Shown here: positions 60,595-60,787 of the stretch, piece by piece
Numbering within the stretch: the first letter of the stretch is position 1
Layout: every line of letters starts with the position of its first letter
Source of the DNA: Candidatus Nanohaloarchaea archaeon
Lineage (GTDB): Archaea > Nanohalarchaeota > Nanosalinia > Nanosalinales > Nanosalinaceae
Assembly (NCBI GenBank): GCA_014297435.1
Contig: JACOQA010000004.1
Location: 76,180-140,179, forward strand
Direction of reading: 5' to 3'
Length of the DNA: 64,000 bases
Program-made: the position numbers and the translations under genes
The notes under the pieces: model-generated
What the model was told of the DNA's origin: nothing
The model's input: the letters and a program-made list of their open reading frames with translations, nothing else
The model's database searches: none

Positions 60595-60711
60595 AAAATG
60601 AAGCTCATTAGGAGCCGGGAATTCAACCGTTCCCAAGCCCTTAGAAAGTTCAAAAGAACTTTCATGAGCAGGCAGTTTCCAGCATCTCTCACAAAGACAC
60701 GGAACGCCTAT
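60595..60711 (-). ncRNA. Candidate structured small RNA (about 115 nt, four helices)
   Basis: Near-complete pairing that uses G-U pairs available only on the minus strand; TATTTAA about 25 nt upstream; UUUU 3' end. Confidence 0.65.
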
Positions 60712-60787
60712 GACAATCAATTGGCTCAGTAACGTTAAATACACAGAACTTTGATCAGAAAAGGTAAAGAAGAAAAAGGAGAAGAAT

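Follow-up and report, generated by a model that had tools for sequence, protein, structure and literature searches.

A 64,000-nt stretch of Candidatus Nanohaloarchaea archaeon DNA (GenBank assembly GCA_014297435.1, contig JACOQA010000004.1, positions 76,180 to 140,179 of the forward strand; hereafter the window) carries on its minus strand, from about position 60,711 down to 60,595, what is very probably a real RNA gene of a new family. The predicted product folds into four helices, P1 to P4, and 12 distinct homologous sequences keep these helices with compensatory changes, together with a TATA box, a terminal run of T, and three nearly invariant motifs. With its clear promoter and terminator signals and strong covariation, this compact RNA is a defined, testable object. 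Its novelty lies at the level of the RNA family, and its range is narrow. To our knowledge, almost nothing has been learned about non-coding RNAs in the DPANN archaea, whose genomes are tiny, beyond rRNA, tRNA, signal recognition particle (SRP) RNA, and RNase P RNA. As a whole, the observations are best explained by a stand-alone structured-RNA gene whose product acts by binding protein, and we consider the chances that this combined explanation is right to be evenly balanced.

Fold, transcription signals and covariation of the RNA

The genome carrying the window (G000) comprises 0.999 Mb in 15 contigs and is 99% complete; the window lies on contig C10. The original prediction, made from the letters of the window, had placed a four-helix RNA with its own promoter in a non-coding gap of about 190 bp. 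The gap is real and slightly larger than claimed: the RNA gene sits in 206 bp of non-coding DNA (60582-60787) between two convergent open reading frames (ORFs). All of the predicted coordinates proved correct, namely, AGGC at 60709, GCUCAU at 60669-60664 with AUGAGC at 60608-60603, and TATTTAA at 60741-60735. The parts of the gene, all on the minus strand, are as follows.

60735-60741, minus strand: TATA box TATTTAA, kept at a fixed distance in homologues
60595-60711, minus strand: predicted transcript of ~115 nt, with its start placed by the TATA distance and its end by the U-run
60670-60709, minus strand: P1, an irregular hairpin; from the base upward, 5 bp, a small asymmetric loop, 4 bp, a 1-nt bulge, and 6 bp at the top
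60688-60695, minus strand: apical motif of P1, UUUGUGAG, with the 7-nt loop UUGUGAG and a U-A closing pair
60664-60669, minus strand: 5' strand of P2, GCUCAU, inside the conserved CCUGCUCA and without a linker to P1
60644-60663, minus strand: P3 hairpin, variable in sequence and length
60610-60641, minus strand: P4, a bulged hairpin found in the minimum-energy fold and by covariation (helix 6)
60623-60627, minus strand: GUUGA motif, lying 3' in the P4 loop and kept by 11 of the 12 distinct sequences
60604-60616, minus strand: nearly invariant 3' strand GGCUCCUAAUGAG, made up of the 3' strand of P4, the junction AA, and the 3' strand of P2
60603-60608, minus strand: 3' strand of P2, AUGAGC, paired with GCUCAU at 60669-60664
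60595-60598, minus strand: U-run UUUU, a likely archaeal termination signal, kept as a T-run in homologues

The minimum-energy fold of the minus strand, computed with RNAfold (ViennaRNA), consists of P1, P2, P3, and P4 as described in the original prediction. Its energy is -44.8 kcal/mol (z = -4.51), a stability reached by none of 200 shuffled sequences, and exactly five of its 42 pairs are G-U, the number given in the original prediction. P1 directly abuts P2, on which, with no linker between the two, it probably stacks in the modeled fold; P2 closes a three-way junction carrying P3 and P4. Because the plus strand is likewise stable (z = -4.42), the z-score alone leaves the strand undecided; it is the G-U pairs, the promoter, and the U-run that decide it.

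The paired region opens with AUAGGC, its AGGC starting at 60709, and TATTTAA lies 23 nt before AUAGGC. A box reading TATTTAA, TATATAA, or TTACTTAA occurs 23 nt before the first conserved base (AUAGG or UUAAGG) in 12 of 12 homologues, and all of them likewise have 4 to 6 consecutive T after P2. The claim that the RNA has its own promoter is thus borne out across the family. The combination expected of an independent RNA gene in archaea, in which a TATA box precedes the start by ~25 nt and an oligo-T terminator follows, both kept among homologues, was found in 12 of 12. In five of the 12 loci (L024, L025, L027, L029, and L047), but not in G000, a box resembling GTTGAGGCCT, possibly a promoter-proximal or regulator site, stands between the TATA box and the predicted start.

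The first four sequences, when aligned, shared the TATA box, the loop motifs, and the terminator, and RNAalifold returned four helices from them, in which both partners had changed in 11 of 36 pairs. The main covariation set comprised 12 distinct sequences, from 10 genomes and two metagenome contigs. Standard pairs filled 96.4% of its 415 paired cells, and 15 of 36 pairs were changed on both sides, distributed over P1 (6 of 15 model pairs in helices 1 and 2), P3 (6 of 8 in helices 4 and 5), and P4 (3 of 8 in helix 6). The observed covariation score was reached by none of 500 shuffles, and when the partner columns were slid by 1 to 3 positions, pairing fell to 33 to 56%. G-U pairs, which become A-C on the opposite strand, occupied 70 of the 415 cells (17%, summed from the covariation table). 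A MAFFT alignment, which is independent of the covariance model, again yielded P1 to P4 with RNAalifold (12 of 33 pairs changed on both sides), and single-sequence minimum-energy folds had the same architecture in 11 of the 12 sequences. Since the structure is kept with compensatory changes in 12 distinct homologues, it lies far beyond chance. The original prediction had named the shuffled-sequence z-score and a homologue search with covariation as checks, and the RNA came through both.

A few elements hardly vary in sequence. The P1 loop motif UUUGUGAG was unchanged in 12 of 12 distinct sequences. CCUGCUCA was present in 11, the twelfth carrying CCAACUCA, and GUUGA of the P4 loop was likewise present in 11, L022 having GCUAA. 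The 3' strand GGCUCCUAAUGAG was identical in 8 of 12, the others carrying the variants GUCCCUUAAUGAG (two sequences), GGCUCUUUAUGAG (one), or AGCUCCUAAUGAG (one), with one to three changes each; this strand stays fixed while its pairing partners drift via G-U pairs. P3 is free to vary in sequence and length, and the P4 loop ranges from ~7 to 11 nt. The junction strands are 0 to 2 nt long with conserved nucleotides, and the internal loops measure 0-1 by 1-3 nt.

Distribution and comparison with known families

A BLAST search over 41 genomes (G000 and 40 relatives) gave a same-genus copy of 89% identity and two weaker copies in other genera; the remaining four matches hit only the T-rich upstream stretch. 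A covariance model built from the first four sequences (R1) found one copy each in 10 of 50 genomes of the family, six of them new and scoring 50 to 86 bits. A second model built from ten sequences (R2) found the same 10 among 70 genomes of the class and phylum, with 0 of 20 in four other families. In these large searches, strict filters were used, and 51 to 71 of several hundred first-look candidates were scored per genome. The RNA is present in 7 of 21 genera and is patchy even within genera. A laxer covariance search of five genomes that are 95 to 99% complete gave nothing below E = 2.4, and nothing below E = 0.58 came up when 80 kb of syntenic DNA from two of these five was searched with filtering switched off; incomplete genomes without a match are counted as "not found" rather than "absent."

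A motif-pattern scan over one genome per prokaryotic species returned six loci, of which five were confirmed by the model and four stand in records titled Nanohaloarchaea. One of the confirmed loci is L035, in record CP046106.1. The covariance model rejected L030, from a Bacteroidales record. Another of these loci, L034 (JBLGBK010000011.1), is titled as a metagenome-assembled genome of Colwellia polaris and holds a full-length copy scoring 86 bits, the same as the G020 copy, so that title and content disagree. The same scan over metagenomes returned four loci; three were confirmed, giving two new sequences (L046 is identical to L025), and L044 was not confirmed. Together with the loosely conserved chromosomal neighbourhood, this distribution suggests vertical inheritance with repeated loss, although transfer may have contributed.

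The RNA belongs to none of the known families we compared it with. With Rfam 15 at gathering score, the whole window gave two tRNAs only (48263-48336 and 48957-49031). At E <= 10, the interval 60450-60900 gave noise (mir-305 and two human long non-coding RNA models), and eight homologous loci gave no family at the position of the RNA except one noise match. The original prediction had set the RNA apart from tRNA, 5S rRNA, SRP RNA, and C/D RNA by eye, and the searches agree, the true genes lying elsewhere. For tRNA, there was no RF00005 match at the locus (29-bit criterion; none at E <= 10) and no ARAGORN call. The RNA does not fill a gap in the tRNA set either, as tRNA-His(GUG) is encoded at C9:203131-203205 and an intron-containing tRNA-Asn(GUU) elsewhere in G000. 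The latter (C11:14884-14973) has a 16-nt intron after position 37; G000 seems to lack tRNA-Asn because ARAGORN without its intron mode miscalls this gene, as tRNA-Gly(acc). For 5S rRNA, there was no RF00001 match at the locus (38-bit criterion), and two true 5S genes lie on C9 (70.9 and 68.6 bits). No 16S or 23S rRNA gene is assembled in G000 despite its 99% completeness. Archaeal SRP RNA (RF01857) and RNase P RNA (RF00373) gave no match at the locus; a complete SRP RNA lies at C9:40921-41183 (118 bits) and the RNase P RNA gene at C11:58761-59114 (87.9 bits).

Box C/D small RNAs (sRNAs) are marked by a RUGAUGA motif (C box) close to the 5' end and a CUGA motif (D box) close to the 3' end, which join in a kink-turn, and by a 10- to 12-nt guide complementary to rRNA or tRNA; in H/ACA sRNAs, ACA follows a hairpin that encloses a large internal pocket. 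The RNA resembles the archaeal guide sRNAs in being small and stand-alone and in having UGA-containing motifs (UGUGAG, UUGA, and AAUGAG). No RUGAUGA/CUGA pair was found in G000 or in the 12-sequence alignment, and no C/D family matched at E <= 10. Nor did the RNA show a pseudouridylation pocket, an ACA after P1 or P4 in any of the 12 sequences, or a match to an H/ACA family. By eye, against their usual definitions, no kink-turn, K-loop, T-loop, or bulge-helix-bulge was found. A hint at self-cleavage in the original prediction found no counterpart among known ribozymes: models of hammerhead, twister, twister-sister, pistol, hatchet, HDV-like, and hairpin ribozymes gave no match at E <= 10 in G000 and the eight homologous loci.

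Elements of other kinds were also rejected. A miniature inverted-repeat transposable element or other dispersed repeat, which would have removed the novelty, does not fit one covariance-model match per genome in all 10 genomes. In G000, this match is at 60592-60713 of the window (C10:136771-136892). G000 also gave a single full-length match in a separate search, the other 11 matches being 14 to 33 nt long with E of at least 0.3. For a mobile or viral origin, the motif pattern had no match in viral contigs, and blastn against phages and plasmids found nothing; the only PHROGs match among the neighbours is a VRR-NUC gene, and other genes of the window look cellular (ROK kinase, GTPase, NUDIX, PHO4, and PadR). 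A small protein-coding ORF was considered because a 41-amino-acid (aa) GTG-started ORF (60567-60692) and an 80-aa ORF overlap the RNA in G000; most homologues lack the AUG, and indel lengths do not keep to multiples of three.

In size and overall shape, the RNA recalls 5S rRNA, which is likewise ~115 to 120 nt long, independently transcribed, and Y-shaped, with one helix closing a three-way junction of two arms. It differs in that its 5' and 3' ends are not paired with each other, in the extra 5' hairpin P1 abutting the closing helix, and in its presence in only 10 of 70 genomes. The Alu domain of SRP RNA and the phi29 pRNA also combine a three-way junction, two hairpins, and a conserved loop sequence on one arm; here, however, the P3 loop is not conserved, hence no loop-loop pairing can be inferred, and there is no viral context. 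We found no description of this RNA in the literature searched. One metatranscriptome report (PMC7002113) mentions a conserved 266-nt intergenic nanohaloarchaeal sRNA, with reference to its Fig. S6A and Data Set S1. We regard the RNA as a new RNA family in the sense that it is in neither Rfam 15 nor the literature searched, the 266-nt sRNA standing outside this comparison.

Possible modes of action

We hypothesize that the RNA acts in trans as a protein-binding RNA, either within a ribonucleoprotein (RNP) or by sequestering a protein. Protein binding as the mechanism is a tentative proposal, somewhat less than an even chance in our judgment, and is read from the pattern of conservation. Three features fit a scaffold for protein: covariation in the helices, an arm free to act as a spacer, and invariance of the loops, the junction, and one strand. 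In this proposal, the rigid scaffold would present sequence-specific contact sites, namely, the P1 loop UUUGUGAG, the related GUUGA, the junction nucleotides, and the 3' strand GGCUCCUAAUGAG, while P3 would be a mere spacer. By functional analogy with 6S RNA, CsrB-type RNAs, and Y RNA, this too is a stable stand-alone RNA whose conserved loops and fixed strand look like recognition sites, although it shares no sequence or structural homology with those classes and has no Rfam match. We know of no description of 6S, CsrB-type, or Y RNA in DPANN archaea.

A possible partner, and a second gene that bears on one of the alternatives, lie beside the RNA gene among the following ORFs of the window.

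56920-57867, minus strand: 315-aa paralogue resembling a class-I aminoacyl-tRNA synthetase (aaRS), with HVGN and KSKSRG-type motifs and Cys clusters; too short for a full synthetase
58918-59172, plus strand: 84-aa protein with a predicted PC4/Pur-alpha-like fold, convergent with the RNA gene and loosely syntenic
59739-60581, plus strand: 280-aa ORF, convergent with the RNA gene, its stop ~14 nt from the U-run; common only to G000 and G001
60788-61462, minus strand: 224-aa ORF upstream of the RNA gene; not conserved beside the RNA

The 84-aa gene is convergent with the RNA gene at a distance of 33 to 1848 nt in 7 of the 8 genomes having both. Its protein was found in half of the family genomes (25 of 50), among them 8 of the 10 that bear the RNA. 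The 84-aa family comprises 106 matches, all of at least 67% identity and solely in Nanohaloarchaea-type records, and has no Pfam match. The AlphaFold model (predicted local distance difference test score 90.2) consists of four strands and then a helix. Whole-domain comparison with VIA-align matched it to Borrelia Pur-alpha (Z 7.1), a Burkholderia PC4 homologue (Z 6.8, root-mean-square deviation 2.1 over 65 residues), the PC4-like protein of phage T5 (Z 6.2), and human PC4 (Z 5.9). The ESM Atlas lead was a PC4/YdbC cluster (0.86), and Foldseek of the model against the PDB gave weak NTF2-like rows only (E of at least 0.02). On the strength of this model, the protein is probably a single-strand nucleic-acid binder, and we name it as a weak candidate for the partner of the RNA. 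A more specific version of the proposal, that the RNA is the core of a new small Nanohaloarchaea RNP titrating a single-strand-binding protein through its UGUGA/UGUUGA loops and 3' strand, with the PC4/Pur-alpha-fold protein as the candidate, seems to us decidedly unlikely; if true, it would be a protein-sequestering RNA in a DPANN symbiont, limited to some lineages. In G054, the copy of the 84-aa gene contains two in-frame TAA stops.

Several points weigh against the protein-binding proposal and the evidence behind it. The expression, the ends, and the abundance of the RNA are all read from DNA sequence, and the protein partner is a candidate only. A look-up of sequencing runs containing this sequence listed no RNA run; the only run listed was a DNA-type metagenome of a hypersaline lake, holding 0.10 of the sequence words. 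The 12-row covariation alignment had been fitted to the model, and shuffle statistics run high when sequences are related. The structural Z values of the 84-aa model are below 8, the range that VIA-align calls common. The 84-aa protein occurs in 17 of 40 family genomes without the RNA, and with the query used, it was not found in two of the 10 RNA-bearing genomes, G020 and G024, in the latter of which the RNA lies ~300 nt from a contig end. Because it is present without the RNA and was not found in these two genomes, the 84-aa protein is not an obligate partner, and its adjacency to the RNA gene may be plain synteny. The patchy range implies a dispensable RNA, and this would suit a regulator no less than an RNP. 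Finally, the antisense test on mRNA targets described below covered one genome and exact seeds.

The alternative that survives best, though still unlikely, is a trans-acting antisense sRNA in which the invariant P1 loop UUUGUGAG, perhaps with the P4 loop, serves as the seed for one or a few mRNAs. Like sRNA seeds, the invariant nucleotides stand in apical loops, and a patchy range and dispensability are typical of regulators. In G000, however, the 8-mer complement of the P1 loop, CTCACAAA, occurs 18 times against ~30 expected and is therefore not enriched; ten 7-mer P1-loop sites lie within -50 to +30 of ATG-started ORFs, and none has extended pairing. The fixed 3' strand and junction, which lie inside helices, are left unexplained by a seed model. 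Searches for complements in stable RNAs were likewise negative: conserved segments of the RNA have no complement of at least 8 nt in the 16S or 23S rRNA of one RNA-bearing genome, the sole 10-mer falling in a variable part, and the conserved motifs have no notable complement in 5S rRNA, SRP RNA, RNase P RNA, or the 36 tRNAs of G000. A UUUGAAC match to tRNA T-loops falls in the non-conserved P3 and in G000 only.

Three further hairpins with a TTGTGAG loop occur in G000, all within long ORFs. They were taken as chance, and with no family of similar hairpins elsewhere in the genome, a hairpin regulon was rejected.

Quite improbable is a new catalytic or ligand-binding RNA, in which the three-way junction would form the core and the conserved loops would make tertiary contacts. 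Conserved junction nucleotides and distal loops on covarying helices are what ribozymes and aptamers show, and the P1 loop contains GUGA, a GNRA-type sequence. Yet no ribozyme or riboswitch family matched at E <= 10 in G000 and the eight homologous loci, the junction strands are only 0 to 2 nt long, and the gene, present once per genome and equipped with its own promoter and terminator, precedes no consistent gene. No loop-receptor covariation is visible, since the loops do not vary.

Anticodon loops follow the pattern Y-U-NNN-R-N. UUGUGAG fits this pattern with GUG as the "anticodon," and P1, like a tRNA anticodon arm, ends in a 7-nt loop on a covarying stem, loop length and sequence being invariant in 12 of 12. 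The RNA might therefore mimic an anticodon arm and be a decoy for, or a substrate of, an enzyme recognizing anticodon loops, e.g., the nearby aaRS-like paralogue, which matches Pfam tRNA-synt_1f (3e-8) and, weakly, the NCBIfam models of LysRS (class I) and GluQRS. Its gene lies within 0.85 to 14.4 kb of the RNA in 6 of 6 genomes having both. We regard this alternative as very improbable. The aaRS-like gene was found in 24 of 50 family genomes; it is missing in 4 of the 10 RNA-bearing genomes (present in 6) and present in 18 of 40 without the RNA. Only one loop is anticodon-like, since the P4 loop varies in length; normal tRNA-His and tRNA-Asn genes are present; and the rest of the RNA is not tRNA-like, having no cloverleaf, T-loop, or acceptor end and no RF00005 or ARAGORN match. 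Neither the 84-aa nor the 315-aa aaRS-like gene tracks the presence of the RNA, and both were rejected as obligate partner genes.

It is scarcely credible that the element is no RNA gene at all but a palindrome conserved in DNA or, between convergent genes, a terminator working in both directions. Convergent ORFs do flank it in G000, and the plus strand also folds stably, but the G-U cells noted above would turn into A-C mismatches in a DNA cruciform or on the opposite strand, the TATA box is in register in 12 of 12, the U-run stands on one strand only, and non-convergent contexts exist as well (L023, L025, and L026). Protein binding and these four alternatives together leave part of the probability unassigned.

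Genes around the RNA gene

Across genera, the immediate neighbours of the RNA gene include an Mrr-type nuclease, a Cdc6-like ATPase, TFIIB, a GNAT acetyltransferase, DUF3784 proteins, and unknowns. The downstream gene is convergent in G000, G001, G016, G020, G056, and G018, and a co-oriented ORF lies downstream in L023, L025, and L026. In G000, neither the 280-aa nor the 224-aa ORF has a Pfam, NCBIfam, or PHROG match. Within the genus, the 224-aa ORF of G000 is replaced upstream of the RNA by a 102-aa DUF3784 ORF in G001 (L020), and the VRR-NUC gene beyond is common to both. Judged from its gene content, the DNA beside the RNA gene is a small variable cassette. Because the neighbours differ between genera, and even the upstream ORF is replaced within a genus, the RNA is not cis-regulatory; a leader or riboswitch was further rejected on the often convergent downstream gene and the RNA's own terminator in 12 of 12. 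In our reading, the wider locus is an ancient chromosomal neighbourhood in which the RNA gene would have undergone many losses.

Several tRNA genes of these genomes carry introns. In G000, the introns of tRNA-Met (C1:95395-95548) and tRNA-Trp (C12:24712-24840) hold, in a reading by eye, the C/D-box-like motifs GAUGAGG and AAUGAUUA. The tRNA-Met intron ends in GUGUGAGAU, similar by eye to the P1 loop of the RNA; this likeness of short sequences is probably a coincidence. In other loci, a tRNA-Thr(UGU) gene with an unusually long intron lies 65 to 90 nt from the RNA gene: the intron measures 93 nt in L028 (1686-1853, minus strand) and ~137 nt in L029 (1711-1922, plus strand). In L027, an intron-less tRNA-Thr(UGU) stands 1 kb upstream of the RNA gene.

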